DNA of 64,000 nt from a bacterium. GTDB lineage: Bacteria > Patescibacteriota > Minisyncoccia > Phycocordibacterales > Phycocordibacteraceae. The notes beneath the pieces were generated by a model. The model had not been told where the DNA came from and did not search any database. It saw nothing but the letters and a program-made list of their open reading frames with translations. Location: positions 7,466-71,465 of the forward strand of contig JAKBGA010000001.1 of assembly GCA_021833245.1 (NCBI GenBank), in the 5' to 3' direction. Positions 4,984 to 53,105 of this stretch are shown here, in pieces. The first letter of the stretch is position 1; every line of letters starts with the position of its first letter. The position numbers and the translations under genes are program-made.

Positions 4984-5210
4984 AAAATTATGTGTACTGA
5001 TATAGAGTACGCCATCAACACTGGGAACACTGTGTGGATAACTATAACGTCACATTACTATATGCTCCTCGCTATTCGTTAATCCACCACATAGTGATTA
5101 TATGGCTGCCAAACAGATAATGCTATATAAAACAAACTCGCTGTAATTTATCGATTCTTAATCAAAACCATGTCTGGGGTACAAAATATCTCTCTTCAAG
5201 ATAAACATGC

Positions 5211-44855: not shown

Positions 44856-45776
44856 ATGCCTATTGAGATAGTAAAGCGGCAATTCCTTGAGTACCTCGAG
44901 ATCGAACGTGGCCGAGCGGTGAAAACCATTGAAAATTATAATCACTATCTCACTCGCTATTTCATCCAAATGAACATCGTGAACGTGAGGGATATCAACG
45001 AAAAGAGTGTGCGCGAATTTCGCTTGTGGTTGAACCGCCAACCGGGCACTAACACTGCCCTAATGAAACGTCGTACTCAGAATTACTATATGATTGCGCT
45101 ACGTGCATTTTTAAAGTTCTTACACAAACGTGATATACCAGCCATTTCCCCGGAAAAGATTGAGCTTGCAAAACTTTCAGAACGTCAACTCGATCTTATC
45201 ACCCCTGTCGAATTGGAACGCCTCATGCAAGCACCACGTGAGGCATTTAAAAATGAGAAGAATCGGGATAAAGCGCGAACTTACTTGCGAGATGGCGCGA
45301 TTCTTGAACTTCTATTCTCAACTGGACTACGTGTGTCCGAGCTCTGTTCGCTTAACACTGATATAGATTTAACACGTGACGAATTATCTATACGTGGCAA
45401 GGGTGATAAAGTTCGCGTTGTTTTTCTCTCGTCTGCCGCAAAAAGTGCGGTACGTGAATACCTGGGAGCGCGGAATGATATGGAAGAGGCGCTCTTCGTC
45501 GAAGGTAGACCGAATAAACTGCACCGAATTATTCCACGCGATGTGCAACGCCACCTTAAATCCTATGTTGCTCGTGCAGGTATCACGAGTGTCGTAACTC
45601 CACACACACTCCGCCATGCTTTCGCCACAGATTTGCTCAGTAATGGTGCTGACATTCGATCAGTGCAACAGCTTCTCGGCCATGCCTCTATTAACACGAC
45701 TCAGATTTATACACATATAACCGATGCTCACTTGCGCGAGATTCACAAAAAATATCATTCCCATAATCGTGATTAA
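44856..45776 (+). CDS. tyrosine recombinase XerC/XerD family
   Basis: HTLRHAFATDLLSNGADIRSVQQLLGHASINTTQIYTHI (R-H-R-Y catalytic region) and an N-terminal SAM-like core-binding domain. Confidence 0.85.
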   Translation: MPIEIVKRQFLEYLEIERGRAVKTIENYNHYLTRYFIQMNIVNVRDINEKSVREFRLWLNRQPGTNTALMKRRTQNYYMIALRAFLKFLHKRDIPAISPEKIELAKLSERQLDLITPVELERLMQAPREAFKNEKNRDKARTYLRDGAILELLFSTGLRVSELCSLNTDIDLTRDELSIRGKGDKVRVVFLSSAAKSAVREYLGARNDMEEALFVEGRPNKLHRIIPRDVQRHLKSYVARAGITSVVTPHTLRHAFATDLLSNGADIRSVQQLLGHASINTTQIYTHITDAHLREIHKKYHSHNRD

Positions 45777-46692: not shown

Positions 46693-46999
46693 AGGACACT
46701 TATCCACAAGCATGTCCTTTACATTTATATTTGCAAGGATATATTTATTAAAGAGCGGTAGTTCTTTCTTGGATCATTATCGGCATCAGAAATAGCGCAA
46801 AACCTTGAGGCTCCTGCTTTCGCAAGCGGCGATCCGCTACACAAGCCATAATGGCATGATTCCTTACATGGTTGAAGCGCTGGAAGAATACAAAACAAAA
46901 GCCACACCAAAACTCGGATTGAGACCCAATCATTTACGCCCCACAACTCCTATTTGTCTCAATCCATCATCGGGTGGCTTTGTTGTTTATGTAATAAAC

Positions 47000-47045: not shown

Positions 47046-48509
47046 TCAACACACGTGATGTTTCTCCATTATGTGCTTTATTTCCTCATCTTCTGCTGCT
47101 TCACGACGCCGTTTCCCAGCCTCTCCGAGCTTCTGCAAAGAATTATCAGACATGTTGAAAATCTCATCAGCTCGTTTATCAAGATATTCCAGTGTGTTGA
47201 GACTTGAATTATCAAGAACTTCTTCAAGAAGTGCATTGAGTATGTGGCCTATTTTTGGCCCTGATTTCACGTGAAACTTTTCCATTATATAGTTGCCATC
47301 GATTTTAAGCATTGTCACGGATATGGGATCACGGAGTGCCTGATCAACCATTGCCTTATATTTTCTGAAACGAAATGGCTGTTCTTTCGGCCTCCCTGTA
47401 CCGATTCGATCACAAATACGTAAGTTGAGCAGATCCCATATGTTATCCTTACCTACATTCTTTATCATACGACGAACGGCCGAAAGAGTAATCTGATCTG
47501 GATCCGAAAAAAACATATGCCAACGAACCAATTTTACAACTTTTTCTATTGTTTCCCGTGAAAAATGTAGATTCTCAAGCGCTTTTTTTGTTACACGTGA
47601 ACCAACAACATCATGGCCATGGAATGTCCAATCCTTTTTTTCATCTGACCAACGACGGGTCTCTGGCTTTGAAACATCGTGGAATAGACCTGCGAGGCGT
47701 ATATCAAAATTATAATTTTTATCTGCTGCATGTTGCACGGTGCGCATGAGATGGCCAAAAACATCGAAACTATGGGCCTGATTTTGTTTAACGCCAATGC
47801 CACGTGTTAGATCTGATGAGATAAATTCTAGGATACCAAGTTGTTGCGCTAGAATAAATGCATGCATTGGTTGATTTGATTTGAGTATTCTAACAAGCTC
47901 ATCACGAATTCTTTCACGTGAAACATTGTTTAAATGTTTACTATTTTTACTAATCGCTTCAGCAGTCTCACCATCTATACCGAAATCAAGTTCGGCAACT
48001 AGCCGTACTGCGCGTAACATACGCAATGCGTCTTCATTTAAACGTTCGTAGGCATTACCGACAGACCGTATTATTTTGTCTTTTATATCATTTTTACCGT
48101 TGAAAGGGTCAATGATATGTCCTTTAAAATCATCGAGTGCTATGGCATTAATCGTAAAATCGCGACGTGCAAGATCCTCCAGAAGCGAAACCCCGAACTC
48201 AACCTTATCTGGCCGACGTTTATCTGAATACCCAGATTCAATACGATAAGGGGTTATTTCAATAATATCGAGACATGTATTTTTTGAGTTAGTTTTTACA
48301 CCAACAGTACCAAAATTATTTTCATAAAATGACTCCGGAAATAGCGCCTGGATCTGCTCCGGTGTAGCGTTAGTAGTAATATCCCAATCTTTTGGTTCTC
48401 TTCCGATCATTAGATCGCGAACGCATCCACCAACGAGATACGCTTCGAATTTAGATTCACGTAACCTGCCTGAAACTATTGAGACCTCGACCGGGATGTT
48501 GTACGGCAT
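47046..48509 (-). CDS. cca: CCA-adding tRNA nucleotidyltransferase (PolyA polymerase head + HD domain)
   Basis: GGCVRDLMIGREPKDWDITT is the NT-transferase motif, and an HD domain (HFDVFGH...FHDVSKP) follows. The start likely lies at codon 54 of the 540-aa ORF. Confidence 0.8.
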   Translation of the reverse strand: MPYNIPVEVSIVSGRLRESKFEAYLVGGCVRDLMIGREPKDWDITTNATPEQIQALFPESFYENNFGTVGVKTNSKNTCLDIIEITPYRIESGYSDKRRPDKVEFGVSLLEDLARRDFTINAIALDDFKGHIIDPFNGKNDIKDKIIRSVGNAYERLNEDALRMLRAVRLVAELDFGIDGETAEAISKNSKHLNNVSRERIRDELVRILKSNQPMHAFILAQQLGILEFISSDLTRGIGVKQNQAHSFDVFGHLMRTVQHAADKNYNFDIRLAGLFHDVSKPETRRWSDEKKDWTFHGHDVVGSRVTKKALENLHFSRETIEKVVKLVRWHMFFSDPDQITLSAVRRMIKNVGKDNIWDLLNLRICDRIGTGRPKEQPFRFRKYKAMVDQALRDPISVTMLKIDGNYIMEKFHVKSGPKIGHILNALLEEVLDNSSLNTLEYLDKRADEIFNMSDNSLQKLGEAGKRRREAAEDEEIKHIMEKHHVC

Positions 48510-48687
48510 GGACGAATCAATCGTAGCACAATGTGGATGGTTTTTTAGCGATTGTGCCGTAATATGCATATACGCCCCGATAGTGAAACGGATATCACGC
48601 GACGCTTCGGACGTCGAATTCTGGGTTCGACTCCTGGTCGGGGCACTAGAAATCTTGATAAGTGCCATGCTATCATGCTGCGGAGAC

Positions 48688-48758
48688 GCGGGTATGGTTC
48701 AATGGTAGAACATCTGGTTGCCAATCAGATGATGGGAGTTCGATTCTCCCTACCCGCA
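48688..48758 (+). tRNA. tRNA-Gly (GCC)
   Basis: The cloverleaf was read directly. GCGGGTA forms the acceptor, T-arm GGGAGTTCGATTCTCCC, anticodon stem TCTGG/TCAGA, loop TTGCCAA. Length 71 nt, and CCA is not encoded. Confidence 0.85.
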
Positions 48759-48827
48759 CAGCAGTCAGCAGCCTATTTTCAGACCGCGAGGTCTCTATTT
48801 CAGTTCGCAACCGCGAGGGTCACTTGC

Positions 48828-48861
48828 ACACAAAAGCGCGATATTCGTCGCGCTTTTGTGT
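48828..48861. other. 14-bp perfect stem-loop downstream of tRNA-Gly(GCC)
   Basis: ACACAAAAGCGCGA-tattcg-TCGCGCTTTTGTGT. It is preceded by two copies of ACCGCGAGG within about 60 nt. No U-tract follows. Confidence 0.45.
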
Positions 48862-49656
48862 TAATCGGCGAGCGTGATGATGCGATCGCATGGATGTTCT
48901 AGCAGTTCACGCTTCTATTCATGACCTCCGTTCTTCAAGAGATACTTTGCGTATTTTCAGACGTCTATTTCTTTTGCCTTCAACTGAGGATGGTTCTCTA
49001 GTACTCAGTATTTTGGCCCTCTCTTAAGAGTCGTGATGCCAGAGCAACAGTGTCTATGGAGAAATAGTTTCATGAAATTGATATTTCAAATCCACGAGTT
49101 GGTCAGAAAAATGTGAGCAGGGTCATGCTGACACATTTTGAACTGACACATCCCGTGTGATTGGGTGTGGAATGAGATACATGTTTCGGAAATATGGAGG
49201 AAAATTTATACATATTTTATAAACTGGGTTACACCTTGTACTATTCTGAACAAGAACCCGTTGGACATGTGGCCATGTGTTTCGTGGTGTCCTTGTTTCG
49301 TATGCAGCTTCCAAAGTGATACAAAATGTAGACTATAAATTAAGTCTGTGATAAATTCACATCAGATGTAATCTGTGTGTGAATTTTCAAACAAATAAAG
49401 TGAGGAGCAAAGATAACGATGGAAATGGATGAGAACAATGGACGCGACGAAGCGTCTTACCACGTGAGTAAGATAATAGACGACCGCTCCTATGTGAGCG
49501 GTGCACCAATCGATCCTATGTTTAGGGTAGAGTGGGAAAGTAAAAAATCCACCCTTCTGGAAAGGATTGATCAGATCATTGCATCAAGGTCTGATAGATA
49601 AGTCCAGTAAGGAATATTACGACGAGCGTATCCGGTTAGTGGAGTACGCTCGTTTT

Positions 49657-50121
49657 TTATAGATGATTATCATTTCTCGAGTTATTGTACTTTTTATTTT
49701 TTAATATGATTCCGATTCCCACATTGTGTTCTATATAATCAATTGCGGTCTTGAGAAGACTCACACTGTTATTAAACTTTCCAAGACCAACTTTGCAGTT
49801 TAAACAAAGCAATCCCCGTACTACCATTGTTTCGGGGGAATAATCTAGCGCGGGTCTTTTCATCGGGGAACTACATATTCCACATAATCCATGCTGTTGT
49901 TCAAACAATTCCGCATACAGCTGTCTGTATAGGCTCGCTGTTCCAAACAATAAGGCTAATTTCTTATCGTCAAGACATTGCCGACAACATGTTTTTCCAT
50001 CAACTGGAGGATTCTTCTCGCAATTCGGACAGATACCCATCGCCTTAAGCGCAGCCCTGCGTTTCCTTTGATAATTTAAAAACCGTTGTCTATCATATTC
50101 TGACCTCCAAGATTTAGACAT
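49657..50121 (-). CDS. recombination endonuclease VII-like (phage T4 Endo VII family) Zn-binding nuclease
   Basis: GLCGICSSPMKRPALDYSPETMVVRGLLCLNCKVGLGKF matches the Endonuclease_7 HNH-like core. Additional CxxC pairs lie N-terminally. It sits in an AT-rich islet between two tRNAs. Confidence 0.65.
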   Translation of the reverse strand: MSKSWRSEYDRQRFLNYQRKRRAALKAMGICPNCEKNPPVDGKTCCRQCLDDKKLALLFGTASLYRQLYAELFEQQHGLCGICSSPMKRPALDYSPETMVVRGLLCLNCKVGLGKFNNSVSLLKTAIDYIEHNVGIGIILKNKKYNNSRNDNHL

Positions 50122-50449
50122 AAATTACTATCCACAATAATATACTGTGGATAATTGATAAAGTGGAAAAAGGTGTTAGTACTGGGGATAAAGGACAATT
50201 ACTCCTAGTAAGACTTTATTACCGTCCTAAAGTTTATCGAGTAAACAAGCCATATTTCTAAAAGTCGTAAAAACCTTCTATAAAGAGGGTTGATATATTT
50301 AATCTGACCGAAAAAAGTTGAGTTAAAGGAAAAAATTGTATCTAATTTTTAATTCTCAAATCCTATCTCTCTTGCTCTGAGTCGAATATTTGATACATTA
50401 CCTAGAACTATCTGCCGTGAATCGCTTAGAACTGTTAGGATGCTATTAA

Positions 50450-50520
50450 CGGGCCGGAGTATGCTGGCAGTACGCCTGCTTTGGGAGCAGGTAGACCGAG
50501 TTCGATTCTCGGCGGCCCGA
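50450..50520 (+). tRNA. tRNA-Pro (TGG)
   Basis: Acceptor CGGGCCG/CGGCCCG+A, anticodon stem CCTGC/GCAGG with loop TTTGGGA, T-arm CCGAGTTCGATTCTCGG. Confidence 0.8.
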
Positions 50521-50523
50521 TTG

Positions 50524-51633
50524 TTATGGCATATGTGCAACTAAAATCGCCTCAAGTATGGAGATATTTGTTGTAAAATTGGTTATCGAGATTGCAACTG
50601 GTTCAGCAAGAAGAGAATTGAGTGTTCTACCAGTCTCCATTGCATAATCAGCACGAATATATGATTCAGTAATGGCACTGAGCTCGCGCGAGCTTGTATC
50701 GCCAGAAATCGTACTTGTAGTGATAGTACCCGCAAGTTCTCCGCTGGCATTCGCGACTCCTCCACCAGAAGACCCTTCCTGCGCTGCAACTGAACCGCCA
50801 AGTGCAAGTACGTCGATTGTGCTCGTCGCAAACGTGAATACGTTTTTTACTGAACCGAAGACGACCGTAGGGAAGAGGGAAGACTGCACTTGACTTGGCT
50901 CAAGAAACTGAGCCCCATAGGAGGCAATAACGATAGGTGTACCCGCGAGAAGCGGTTTAGTTGCAAGCGGTATGAAGTGAAATGAGGAAGGAAGTGCAGC
51001 AAGAGTCGCGCTCTTAGTAATAGCGAGGAGTGCGAAATCATACTGGCCAGTTCCGCTTGGTGCGGTTTCAGTAAGCAAGCCAGCATTAGCATTAATCCAT
51101 GCAGGTGAAATAAATATGAGTGCCGCGTTATAGCTGTCCGTGGCTGGACTTCCCGAACGGATGATGCAAGAAACGCCGCGATTCGCAAGAAGAAAGTATT
51201 GTGCAACATGGGCGTTTGTGAGAATAATTCCTTTGGGATCGATAATAACCCCACTGCCACTTATGGAGTGTAGACCACTTCCTATAGGTACGTAGCAAAT
51301 TATGTTCACGAGTGCAGCACGTAAGATGGACGCTGATGTATCAAGTGATATATTTCCAGATGGGGATGGGGCGCTAGAATTTCCTTGATCAGTCACTGAC
51401 GCTGTAACAACTCCCTTGTGTTGCGTAGAGATTGTTGTTGTTTCTTTTGCGGTGTGGCTTGAATTGGTATGTACCGGTGGAAAAAATATTGTCGATACTA
51501 GAGGTGTCAACGATACAGACTTTGACGAAGGAATAATATTTGGTGCTGTGAGCATATACCGAAAAAAAACGATTGAAAAACTTCCAAGAAGCAGTGCGAA
51601 CATCATCTTAAGAAGATAGTGCGTGAAGCGCAT
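50524..51633 (-). CDS. membrane-anchored trypsin-like (S1/HtrA-type) serine protease, no PDZ domain
   Basis: N-terminal TM. The catalytic triad context is GSGVIIDPKGIILTNAHV (His), a D in ...SYNAALIF..., and GSSGGGV (Ser). Confidence 0.7.
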   Translation of the reverse strand: MRFTHYLLKMMFALLLGSFSIVFFRYMLTAPNIIPSSKSVSLTPLVSTIFFPPVHTNSSHTAKETTTISTQHKGVVTASVTDQGNSSAPSPSGNISLDTSASILRAALVNIICYVPIGSGLHSISGSGVIIDPKGIILTNAHVAQYFLLANRGVSCIIRSGSPATDSYNAALIFISPAWINANAGLLTETAPSGTGQYDFALLAITKSATLAALPSSFHFIPLATKPLLAGTPIVIASYGAQFLEPSQVQSSLFPTVVFGSVKNVFTFATSTIDVLALGGSVAAQEGSSGGGVANASGELAGTITTSTISGDTSSRELSAITESYIRADYAMETGRTLNSLLAEPVAISITNFTTNISILEAILVAHMP

Positions 51634-51672
51634 TGTTCATACGCTATCCTAAAAATGGTATTCTCGCACTAT

Positions 51673-51744
51673 GCGGGCGTGGTCTAACGGCTATGACGGC
51701 TGCCTTCCAAGCAGTCAGCGCGGGTTCGACTCCCGCCGCCCGCA
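51673..51744 (+). tRNA. tRNA-Gly (TCC)
   Basis: Acceptor GCGGGCG/CGCCCGC+A, anticodon stem GCTGC/GCAGT with loop CTTCCAA, T-arm GCGGGTTCGACTCCCGC. Confidence 0.8.
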
Positions 51745-51926
51745 CCGCGTAAAAAAGCCAATTGCGGAATTCATTTTCGCTCTGGTTTCCCACTTTTTAT
51801 AAAATTTAGATCAGAGTCATAATTTTATAAATTAGTTATTCTTTAAGTATTCATTCGTGAATTTTTTCATTTAATGCTACTCAGGAAAAACTGAAAATTG
51901 TTAAATGACTTATAATAAAACATTAT

Positions 51927-53105
51927 ATGTCCAGAGAATCGCTTGAAGGTCGGTCCTGCTCTAATGCGGGGTATACTCAAAAAGATCGAACGGGAGATTC
52001 GACGGGTAACCATGAATTGGTCCAGAGCCACGACGAGATACGTAATGCACGCGCAATTGAGATTGCGGGAGAAGGGAACTATGCAAAAATAATCGACTCA
52101 TTACGACAGGAGGGTCTTCTTGATAAAGAAAGTGAGCGTGTAAGACATGTGTATGCTCTCGATAAAATCCCGTTCTTAACTAAAAAAGATGAGGAAATGT
52201 TTACCGTCCTCGAACTCTATGATGTCGAGACAGCGAGACATTGTCTCGATACTTACAGGATTGCGCAAGACAAGATGAGTGTGGAGATCCTGCCTGGTGT
52301 AATACTCGAACACCTTCTACAAGAAGACGAGGGAATTTCACTTGAGCAATTCTACCGCGCATGCCTCTTCCATGACATTGGGAAAGTCGAGGTGATACGC
52401 CAGGTTATACAGCACGAGATGGGGGATGGCGCGATGCTTGGTTGCTTACATCGTGTTTATCACGACCTTTATGTTAAGAAGAGAATTCCGGGGTCGCTTG
52501 GACTCACGGAAAATCCTACAAATGCCGCACTCGCTGAAGCGCTTGAGGTTCATCATATACGTCCCATATACCTTGTTCCAGCGCGAGAGGTTCTTTCTGA
52601 AAAAGATCTTACCGAGCTCAAGCGTTTTGGGCTTTCTGGTGATGAGACGCTTATGGAGATAATCATGAAACATGAGCAGGTGTCAGGAGATATCCTCAAG
52701 GCCGCCGGGTTCCCTGTTGAGGCATACCTTGCGGCGCACCACCATAATTACAACAGAGAGCCACTTCAGTACCCGATCGCGGTTGGTACGTTGCATATAA
52801 GCATCGATTTCGCAGACATACTCCACATGGCCGATGTTACTGAGGCGGTCTCCTCTTTAGGCCGTAAATATCGTAAGACGTTCAGCATACCGCAAACAAT
52901 GCGAGTCATTGTTGAACATGTCGAGGACGGGAAAATTTCCCCATTCGCAGCTTATCTATGGTTAACAGACGAATTACGGAAATATGAGGATAATTTGATA
53001 GTGTCTGGTGACGCGCTGAATGACAGGGATGTTAAAAATCTCGCATTCGTCCGTTCTTTTCTCGAAAAAGAAAATGATATGCTCCCGTTAAAACAATCGC
53101 GGTGA
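51927..53105 (+). CDS. HD-domain metal-dependent phosphohydrolase family protein (unknown substrate)
   Basis: H...HD motif context (CLFHDIGK) and further His/Asp clusters (HHHNY, LHMAD). 392 aa with no GYP motif. Confidence 0.5.
   Translation: MSRESLEGRSCSNAGYTQKDRTGDSTGNHELVQSHDEIRNARAIEIAGEGNYAKIIDSLRQEGLLDKESERVRHVYALDKIPFLTKKDEEMFTVLELYDVETARHCLDTYRIAQDKMSVEILPGVILEHLLQEDEGISLEQFYRACLFHDIGKVEVIRQVIQHEMGDGAMLGCLHRVYHDLYVKKRIPGSLGLTENPTNAALAEALEVHHIRPIYLVPAREVLSEKDLTELKRFGLSGDETLMEIIMKHEQVSGDILKAAGFPVEAYLAAHHHNYNREPLQYPIAVGTLHISIDFADILHMADVTEAVSSLGRKYRKTFSIPQTMRVIVEHVEDGKISPFAAYLWLTDELRKYEDNLIVSGDALNDRDVKNLAFVRSFLEKENDMLPLKQSR

Follow-up and report, generated by a model that had tools for sequence, protein, structure and literature searches.

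A serine-recombinase element scar beside a resident endonuclease VII-type gene: a probable composite spacer in a tRNA cluster of Patescibacteria

What does AT-rich DNA between two tRNA genes record: a single foreign element in decay, or several histories side by side? We address this question for the spacer of 1,690 nt (48760-50449) between the genes for tRNA-Gly(GCC) (48688..48759, +) and tRNA-Pro(TGG) (50450..50520, +) in a 64-kb stretch of DNA from a Kaiserbacteria-like member of the Patescibacteria (contig JAKBGA010000001.1), hereafter the window. The spacer holds an orphan gene for a 60-amino-acid (aa) protein, orf60, and a gene for a 154-aa protein of the endonuclease VII (endoVII) family; a preliminary description had proposed a decayed integrated element or the insertion of a selfish nuclease. 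We conclude, with a probability of roughly 70%, that the spacer is a composite, made up of the scar of an element with a serine recombinase, a resident non-catalytic endoVII-type gene, and the place of a deleted yraN gene.

For comparison we used the loci of 80 metagenome-assembled genomes that carry the label Kaiserbacteria, Paceibacteria or Patescibacteria and whose CCA-adding enzyme is 63-80% identical; further loci, with numbers up to L116, were fetched as well (L092 is a second fetch of the L081 contig). The usual order in these relatives is exoIII, CCA enzyme, tRNA-Arg, tRNA-Gly(GCC), spacer, tRNA-Pro, trypsin-like protease, tRNA-Gly(TCC). The Gly-Pro spacer is usually 530-800 nt long, with a range from 165 to 5,079 nt, and the Arg-Gly spacer, 41 nt in the window (48647-48687), ranges from 19 to 4,179 nt. 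These two positions are indel and insertion hotspots within one tRNA cluster.

We take the DNA from 48760 to about 49656 to be what a prophage-like integrative element left behind next to tRNA-Gly(GCC), a scar older than the split between the window and L081. At its left edge, abutting the 3' end of the tRNA gene, is an element-specific trailer of 105 nt (48760..48866, +), which holds a 17-nt core resembling GTYCGCAACYSCGAGG (48804-48819) and a terminator with a perfect 14-bp hairpin (48828-48861; -23.6 kcal/mol, z -5.0). Outside loci with the serine recombinase or remnants of it (L004, L024, L033, L053, L081-L084 and L092) the trailer is absent; in most of those loci it directly adjoins the 3' end of a tRNA-Gly gene, and the gene beside it is tRNA-Gly(GCC) in the window subclade and in L024, and tRNA-Gly(TCC) in L053, L004 and L033. 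The sequence of tRNA-Gly(GCC) is identical in 13 relatives, element-free ones included, and the other relatives have unrelated 3' flanks behind it.

Behind the trailer lie pseudogene fragments of a large serine recombinase (48864..49073, -), from the C-terminal zinc-ribbon and coiled-coil part of the protein, found by tblastn with a 441-aa protein of L053 and a 141-aa open reading frame (ORF) of L084. Window positions 48983-48864 correspond to recombinase residues 396-441, interrupted by two in-frame stops and shortened by 6 aa; 49073-49017 and 49023-48985 correspond, across a frameshift and in two frames, to residues ~299-330; and the middle is missing through an internal deletion of ~65 codons. 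The full-length L053 protein has Resolvase, Recombinase and Zn_ribbon_recom domains and is therefore a large serine recombinase; of this three-domain architecture the window keeps C-terminal fragments only. Because these decayed fragments lie within it, the ORF-free stretch that had been pointed out in the spacer is explained; it measures 659 nt (48760-49418) and not the ~900 nt first given. The rest of it (49074..49418) is unassigned non-coding DNA that varies between close relatives in a three-way alignment, apart from its last ~95 nt (49323-49418, upstream of orf60), which are conserved in L081 and L084.

The relatives show the same recombinase at graded stages of decay: 441 aa in L053, L004 and L024, residues 254-441 in L033, 299-441 in L084 and 384-441 in L081, with the window copy the most eroded. 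At the stretch corresponding to the window fragments, L084 has an open minus-strand ORF of 141 aa that is 81-87% identical to the C-terminus of the 441-aa protein and whose homologues carry Recombinase and Zn_ribbon_recom domains; in an alignment of 48760-49421 with its two closest relatives, the window carries deletions relative to L084. The full-length recombinase is convergent with tRNA-Gly and lies ~100 nt from the tRNA 3' end (L053, L004), the geometry seen in the window. Relatives of the protein (44-58% identity) are encoded on 20 IMG/VR viral contigs, in one case beside tRNA-Gln.

The following points weigh against this account of the scar. The preliminary description had suggested looking for att remnants matching the 3' ends of the tRNAs, and the window contains no att-type duplicate of a tRNA 3' end; the far edge of the element is thus unmarked, and the 17-nt core, of which L024 and L053 have a second copy, is single in the window. 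The right-hand limit is one that we infer from relatives alone. The 141-aa ORF of L084, taken by itself, scores 22.8 bits against Zn_ribbon_recom, where the gathering threshold is 25.3 bits. Finally, orf60 was not found in the intact elements fetched. Comparison with phages and plasmids, likewise suggested earlier, returned no nucleotide match for the 1.69-kb spacer DNA in the phage and plasmid collections, and the recombinase fragment gave no tblastn match among phages.

Several further observations concern the element family. The T-arm sequence shared by the tRNA-Gly genes, GGAGTTCGATTCTCC, and the 17-nt core GTYCGCAACYSCGAGG are candidate crossover sites. In L053 (1960-3560 and 4998-6496) there is a full-length recombinase by tRNA-Gly(TCC), a second C-terminal fragment and extra upstream copies of the trailer or core, which suggests stacked element remnants. 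In L024 (3502-8580) the recombinase lies within the Gly(GCC)-Pro spacer, and a HicA/HicB-like pair separates it from the tRNA. Database homologues of the C-terminal fragment are nearly all short (81-241 aa), with Recombinase and/or zinc-ribbon domains and no Resolvase domain; truncated copies thus appear to be widespread in Patescibacteria assemblies, although short contigs are the source of many. A 201-aa ORF across tRNA-Gly in L084 was rejected as a shadow ORF of the recombinase fragment.

The 60-aa ORF that had been noted behind a GGAG-like box is a gene under selection. It lies inside the scar (49419..49601, +), is preceded by a ribosome-binding site GAGGAG at 49402-49407, 11 nt before the ATG, and is confined to the window subclade, with 95% identity in L084 and 66-68% in L081. 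The ratio of nonsynonymous to synonymous substitution rates (dN/dS) against L081 is 0.13, which indicates purifying selection. It has no Pfam or PHROG match, and a search of 5.8 billion proteins found its own cluster alone. From its position, orf60 is probably surviving cargo of the element. A hairpin terminator (49621..49654; -21.2 kcal/mol on the plus strand, -17.8 on the minus strand, z about -5), with a U-run on the plus strand, separates it from the convergent endoVII-like gene. Within the 95 nt upstream of orf60 (49323-49418) there is also a palindrome, AATTCACA-N14-TGTGTGAATT, which shares a CACA...TGTG core with the palindrome upstream of endoVII described below.

The endoVII-family gene (49657..50121, -) has a different history. 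Its family assignment, made earlier from the sequence, holds: the ORF matches PF02945 at E=4.5e-13 (49.4 bits, cutoff 23.6), and the best E-value against PHROG endonuclease VII families is 1.3e-17. In L081, where the CCA enzyme is 89% identical, the order is tRNA-Gly, orf60, endoVII, tRNA-Pro, as in the window. In L086, L088 and L090 (endoVII 50-58% and CCA enzyme 68-71% identical) the gene occupies the identical slot: its stop codon and the 3' end of tRNA-Gly(GCC) are 17-50 nt apart, and its start faces yraN over ~150 nt. A metagenome scan added 24 loci with full-length homologues (51-66% identity), all 24 with the same placement and 20 with yraN. Full-length homologues whose neighbourhood could be read come from ~17 distinct places, and every one of these is this slot, down to 50% protein identity. 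The places outside the window subclade are 4-143 nt from tRNA-Gly(GCC) and have no recombinase, trailer or orf60.

Substitution patterns agree with long residence. Against L081 the endoVII gene has dN/dS 0.14 at a synonymous divergence (dS) of 0.93, and its neighbours have dN/dS 0.15 and dS 0.80 (protease), 0.09 and 0.60 (CCA enzyme) and 0.15 and 1.08 (HD-domain protein). Its GC content is the lowest of the 49 ORFs in the window, but its GC at third codon positions (GC3), 0.355, falls within the range of its neighbours (0.337-0.378). Because it has the same slot in relatives, neighbour-like dS and native-like GC3, the gene is not a recent foreign insertion. We read it as an old, locus-anchored gene of this Patescibacteria clade, not as cargo of the element, a reading that stops short of proof against lateral exchange. 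The proposal of a decayed integrated element is therefore borne out by recombinase fragments and trailer for the ~0.9 kb next to tRNA-Gly, and is contradicted by synteny for the endoVII gene; among related genomes the presence of the recombinase or its remnants varies, and endoVII, where it occurs, keeps its slot.

The resident gene has been altered at its active site. Among aligned homologues, 25 of 28 have the motif L-D-H-x-H ... V-R-G-L-L-C-x-x-C-N, where the window protein reads L-D-Y-S-P ... C-L-N-C-K (D93-Y94-S95-P96 and K110) and its two nearest relatives DYCR...K and DYCP...R. Among loci with a readable motif, the variant occurs in the window subclade alone, and all others have DH[CDNS]H...N. 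In an alignment to T4 endonuclease VII chains, D93, Y94, S95 and P96 correspond to T4 D40, H41, D42 and H43, and K110 to N62, so that the equivalents of H41Y, H43P and N62K replace the general-base histidine, a second histidine and the metal-binding asparagine. The zinc ligands C80, C83, C106 and C109, together with R102 (T4 R54), are invariant in the 28 homologues. In the T4 enzyme, D40 and N62 bind metal, the mutants D40N, H41T, H43T and N62D are inactive and keep DNA binding, and H41 is conserved in 313 of 313 family members surveyed (Fang et al. 2018, PMC6083498). By analogy with these mutants, the window protein probably folds and binds DNA without cutting it; purifying selection (dN/dS 0.14) shows that it is still in use. 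Two considerations reduce the force of this argument: the proposed loss of nuclease activity is carried over from T4 mutant data, and structural similarity is faint, an AlphaFold2 (AF2) model with a mean confidence (pLDDT) of 77.5 giving 2qnf, 1e7l and 1en7 (all T4 endonuclease VII) as the top three Foldseek matches with probability 0.99 but weak scores (E about 0.02, template-modelling score (TM) 0.31).

The third component of the composite is a loss. Of the 80 relatives, 48 have in this spacer, on the tRNA strand, a gene for a 131-aa UPF0102 (YraN) protein (PF02021, E=1e-15), for which tblastn found no match anywhere in the 64-kb window. What is left is a remnant of the first yraN codons (50267..50295, +), which aligns to the GTG/ATG start of the relatives' yraN and in which the former start is now GTA; it is followed by an AT-rich spacer before tRNA-Pro, the former place of yraN and an indel hotspot (50296..50449). 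yraN has thus been deleted in the window subclade, with its control region and first codons left behind. We also considered that YraN had been replaced by endoVII through non-orthologous displacement, and rejected this, as most endoVII-bearing loci have both genes.

The control region once shared with yraN (50160..50266, +) is conserved. It contains direct boxes resembling TGTGGATAA and a 14-mer, TGGGGATAAAGGAC (50183-50196), which is nearly invariant, present as an exact copy in the window and single-copy in 89 of 116 loci. nhmmer detects the element, a conserved non-coding stretch of ~120 nt upstream of yraN, in the spacers of 37 of 62 relatives; it starts 16-90 nt after tRNA-Gly in relatives and 1,400 nt after it in the window. 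Conservation of the element extends over a clade with CCA-enzyme identities of 58-90%, and includes loci from which one or both genes are gone. Just upstream of the endoVII start codon is a palindrome of two DnaA-box-like half sites, TATCCACA-N9-TGTGGATA (50129..50153; -14.4 kcal/mol, z -6.6), which is conserved in endoVII-bearing loci. In 18 loci the sequence between the endoVII and yraN starts reads TATCCACA-N8-9-TGTGGA, then G.G.A.AAAG.TGTTA..A.TGGGGATAAAGGACA; where endoVII is missing, the right half remains, often in the form TGTGGATAAA-N2-TGTG.ATAC-TGGGGATAAAGGAC, and some of these loci have five or six boxes. Changes in the arms of the palindrome are one-sided and uncompensated, which speaks for recognition by a protein and against an RNA stem. 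RNAalifold predicted 0 pairs on 35 control-element sequences; with the uncompensated palindrome changes, this led us to drop an RNA reading of the element. A small conserved ORF (peptide-like 'VDKGVHTGDKGQ') was rejected as well, since its frames break and acquire stops in relatives. The control region is a putative protein-binding promoter or operator.

Boxes resembling TTATCCACA cluster here. Allowing at most one mismatch, three matches fall within a stretch of 64 bp (50128-50191), and the whole 64 kb of the window holds 23 against 14.7 expected. Counted over 1.5 Mb of related loci, boxes of this kind show a 36-fold enrichment at distances of up to 100 nt from the 14-mer. Four more perfect TTATCCACA boxes occur in the window, at 5033, 17469, 38704 and 46700; the last (46700-46708) stands directly behind the exoIII stop codon.

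Taken together, these components point to the following sequence of events. In the usual arrangement, endoVII and tRNA-Gly(GCC) point towards each other and endoVII and yraN away from each other, with the conserved control region of ~150 nt between the two starts. In the ancestor of the window, L084 and L081, an element with a large serine recombinase would have entered directly downstream of tRNA-Gly(GCC) and pushed the resident endoVII gene ~0.9 kb away from it. Deletions would then have destroyed the recombinase and fixed the scar, leaving the 105-nt end with its hairpin, ~210 nt of recombinase pseudogene, unassigned DNA and the selected orf60. In the window subclade, endoVII has kept its zinc cysteines and arginine and lost its catalytic residues while staying under selection, and yraN has been deleted up to its control region and first codons.

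The distribution of endoVII complicates the composite account. Of the 90 lineages on the CCA tree, 12 carry the gene, scattered among lineages without it (neither endoVII nor orf60, nor the HD-domain gene downstream, occurs in any of the 80 related loci); endoVII and CCA identities correlate weakly (r=0.22); and neighbour-joining trees of endoVII and CCA conflict at two supported nodes, with long branches, and yraN agrees with CCA. All three weigh against simple vertical residence. The patchiness could reflect many independent losses together with saturation in a fast-evolving 140-aa protein, or it could reflect lateral exchange at this site, homing-like or by homologous recombination across invariant flanks. 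In the closest presence/absence pair (L111 and L074, 86% nucleotide identity), the indel runs from the 3' flank of tRNA-Gly to just left of the first direct box. Whichever of the two applies, the conclusion for the window is unchanged: its copy is old, selected and without catalytic residues.

A wider interpretation, possible though on balance doubtful, would make more of the pairing with yraN. The endoVII-type and YraN nucleases under one DnaA-box-like control region would form an undescribed module of Kaiserbacteria-like Patescibacteria for processing recombination intermediates, the endoVII cassette would move by homing-like or transformation-mediated exchange over the conserved flanks, and the window lineage would have made of it a selected, non-catalytic DNA-binding protein after the loss of YraN. 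YraN is a PD-(D/E)xK nuclease reported to act with ComM in D-loop resolution during natural transformation (bioRxiv 10.1101/2024.02.06.579203); neither 'endonuclease VII' nor 'Patescibacteria' occurs in that preprint.

It is unlikely that endoVII is a free-standing homing-type selfish nuclease (DHHRN) that has repeatedly invaded the locus, the window copy being a degenerate one late in the homing cycle. A constant site with patchy, interspersed presence, weak correlation with host divergence and the tree conflicts just described are what such a gene would produce; the nearly invariant flanks (tRNA and 14-mer region) could serve as target or homology arms, catalytic residues have been lost in one subclade, and a homing endonuclease with the same catalytic motif exists (F-CphI; PMC6083498). 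Purifying selection on the window copy, however, is as strong as on its neighbours, unlike that on a decaying selfish gene, and the window copy lacks an active nuclease site. Readable copies outside the subclade have an intact active site and are mostly paired with yraN under one control region, suggesting a host function. The flanks are unchanged in alleles with and without the gene, with no target disruption seen; the tree conflicts can be put down to a plateau in identities and to long branches in the tree of a 140-aa protein; and the nearest presence/absence pair, at 86% nucleotide identity, is not a close one. Judged by conserved slot, native-like GC3, dN/dS and lost catalytic residues, a recent selfish insertion fails as a reading of this gene; slower exchange between lineages, homing-like or through recombination, may have taken place.

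We regard it as very unlikely that a single decayed integrated element accounts for all of the 1.7 kb, with the endoVII gene as its cargo. Recombinase remnant, orf60 and endoVII are contiguous between two tRNA genes, the endonuclease VII family is common in phages, and the gene has the lowest ORF GC of the window. Yet outside the subclade endoVII adjoins tRNA-Gly(GCC) without any part of the element, the recombinase-bearing loci L004, L053, L024 and L033 have no endoVII, and viral contigs contain no close full-length homologue, the best being 44-47% identical over the catalytic core only. Composition speaks on both sides. The spacer is AT-richer than its surroundings, as first described (39.2% GC, the window as a whole having 46.3%; among stretches of the same size it ranks in the lowest 0.24%), but the contrast is soft, with 40.2% in the CCA-adding enzyme gene, 41.2% in the exoIII gene and 40-43% over the whole of 44-53 kb; and the GC3 of endoVII is native-like. 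The low GC, which falls to 31.4% over the 328 nt at 50122-50449, reflects intergenic and pseudogene DNA and a Lys/Asn-rich small protein, not recent foreign origin. An assembly artefact is ruled out, as orf60 was found on 7 independently assembled contigs, in the same arrangement at the places read.

A chromosomal replication origin, or a DnaA-titrating site of the datA type, is an equally improbable account of the DnaA-box-like cluster and its AT-rich DNA. The box density and enrichment given above, the five or six in-phase boxes of some relatives, the single-copy and locus-specific occurrence of the cluster and the adjoining GC of 31% would fit. No GC-skew switch is seen at 50 kb, however, and to either side most long ORFs are on the minus strand; most relatives have yraN coding sequence in place of the AT-rich stretch; and the cluster lies exactly between two divergent start codons, as a promoter or operator would. 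A structured non-coding RNA of 660 nt, co-transcribed with the tRNAs, is barely credible: the stretch is directly downstream of two tRNA genes with positive GC skew and strong hairpins, but no Rfam family beyond tRNAs was found there at gathering or permissive thresholds, a strong terminator stands 70 nt past the tRNA, recombinase fragments explain the sequence, and large indels separate it even from a 96% identical relative.

The inverted repeats reported in the preliminary description are confirmed, with hairpins at 48828-48861 and 49606-49662 and the palindrome at 50129-50153. ARAGORN and Rfam confirm the bracketing tRNA-Gly(GCC) and tRNA-Pro(TGG), and also tRNA-Gly(TCC) (51673..51746, +), which had correctly been placed after the next gene and which neighbours the full-length recombinase in L004 and L053. 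They add tRNA-Arg(TCG) (48574..48646, +; Rfam 56.3 bits), which had not been mentioned: it is the first of the tRNA pair upstream of the spacer and adjoins the CCA-enzyme gene in relatives too. The gene between tRNA-Pro and tRNA-Gly(TCC) encodes a trypsin-like serine protease (50524..51633, -; Pfam Trypsin_2), a conserved syntenic neighbour outside the islet, with a tblastn match in 55 of the 80 related loci and the same position wherever the neighbourhood was mapped. After tRNA-Gly(TCC) follows a 392-aa HD-domain gene (51927-53105, +), which is absent from the 80 GTDB loci and among the fetched loci is found only in the window and in L081/L092.

No complete 3' CCA is encoded by any of the four tRNA genes (48574-51746), and tRNA-Gly(TCC) is followed by CC only. 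The cluster adjoins the CCA-adding enzyme gene in more than 80 loci, and some relatives encode CCA on the same tRNAs. On the strand opposite tRNA-Arg, the longest ORF of the CCA enzyme (47046-48668, -) runs through that gene; alignments with homologues begin at the Met at 48509 (487 aa), so that the first 53 codons are an artefact of ORF extension. Both hotspots have received other DNA: in L081 the Arg-Gly(GCC) spacer carries inserted genes for an LtaS-like sulfatase and YibE_F, and L084, with flanks 96-99% identical, has a 5.1-kb insertion (L084 643-5778) at the point that corresponds to window positions 50342-50352. For the six genes of this insertion (CTP_transf_1, G3P_acyltransf, UbiA and three unknowns) there is no homologue in the window or the 80 related loci. 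At 3 kb from the tRNAs there is a gene for a 306-aa tyrosine recombinase (44856-45776, +) with Phage_integrase and SAM-like domains. It was rejected as an integrase of the islet, as it adjoins exoIII in the distant relatives L088 and L090, and it looks like an Xer-type housekeeping recombinase rather than a mobile-element integrase.

Mobile elements of candidate-phyla-radiation bacteria, whose genomes are small, are poorly known. In this setting, the tRNA-bracketed AT-rich 'islet' turns out to combine two adjacent parts that have nothing to do with each other, and a judgement from composition alone would have mis-assigned the nuclease as foreign. The tRNA-Gly-associated serine-recombinase family, with its viral-contig relatives, marks a recurrent insertion hotspot in these bacteria. 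The endoVII-type protein, a natural family member in which a histidine reported as invariant and two more catalytic residues are replaced and which is still selected, is a candidate junction-binding 'pseudo-nuclease', and the pairing of YraN and endoVII under one conserved control region offers a lead on the processing of recombination intermediates, and its regulation, in this clade.

Compared with known systems, the scar most resembles tRNA-adjacent serine-recombinase elements and prophages. As in these, the recombinase is at the element edge, convergent with the tRNA gene and ~100 nt from its 3' end, full-length homologues have the Resolvase, Recombinase and zinc-ribbon domains, relatives occur on viral contigs and presence is variable. 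The window differs in holding a non-functional 3' fragment alone, without flanking repeats, and this element end differs in being found beside two tRNA-Gly isoacceptor genes. The DnaA-box clusters of oriC, the dnaA promoter and datA-type sites share with the control region several TTATCCACA-like boxes, inverted and direct, in ~70 bp that are conserved in the clade; the control region differs in having no origin signature and in sitting between two divergent nuclease genes. The 131-aa spacer gene of the relatives resembles, by its UPF0102 match, the YraN of bioRxiv 10.1101/2024.02.06.579203, a gene now gone from the window.

F-CphI, a free-standing homing endonuclease with the Endo VII motif from cyanophage S-PM2 (PMC6083498), is like the endoVII gene in belonging to the same catalytic-motif family and in being an intergenic, free-standing gene, patchy at a fixed site. 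The window copy differs from it in lacking the catalytic residues, in being under purifying selection and in adjoining no intron or target gene, and endoVII of this clade differs in being paired with yraN under a common control region. With T4 endonuclease VII (gp49; PF02945, 'DHHRN') the window protein shares its profile matches (Pfam and PHROG), the zinc-ligand pattern CX2C...CX2C and the arginine equivalent to R54; it differs in having Tyr, Pro and Lys at H41, H43 and N62, and an N-terminal extension of ~65 aa with conserved cysteines (C31, C34, C45/C46 and C49). The T4 enzyme is phage-borne, whereas the window family is chromosomal and locus-anchored in Patescibacteria. The novelty of the locus, a variant on known kinds, is modest and lies in the selected non-catalytic endonuclease VII derivative and the undescribed conserved control region.

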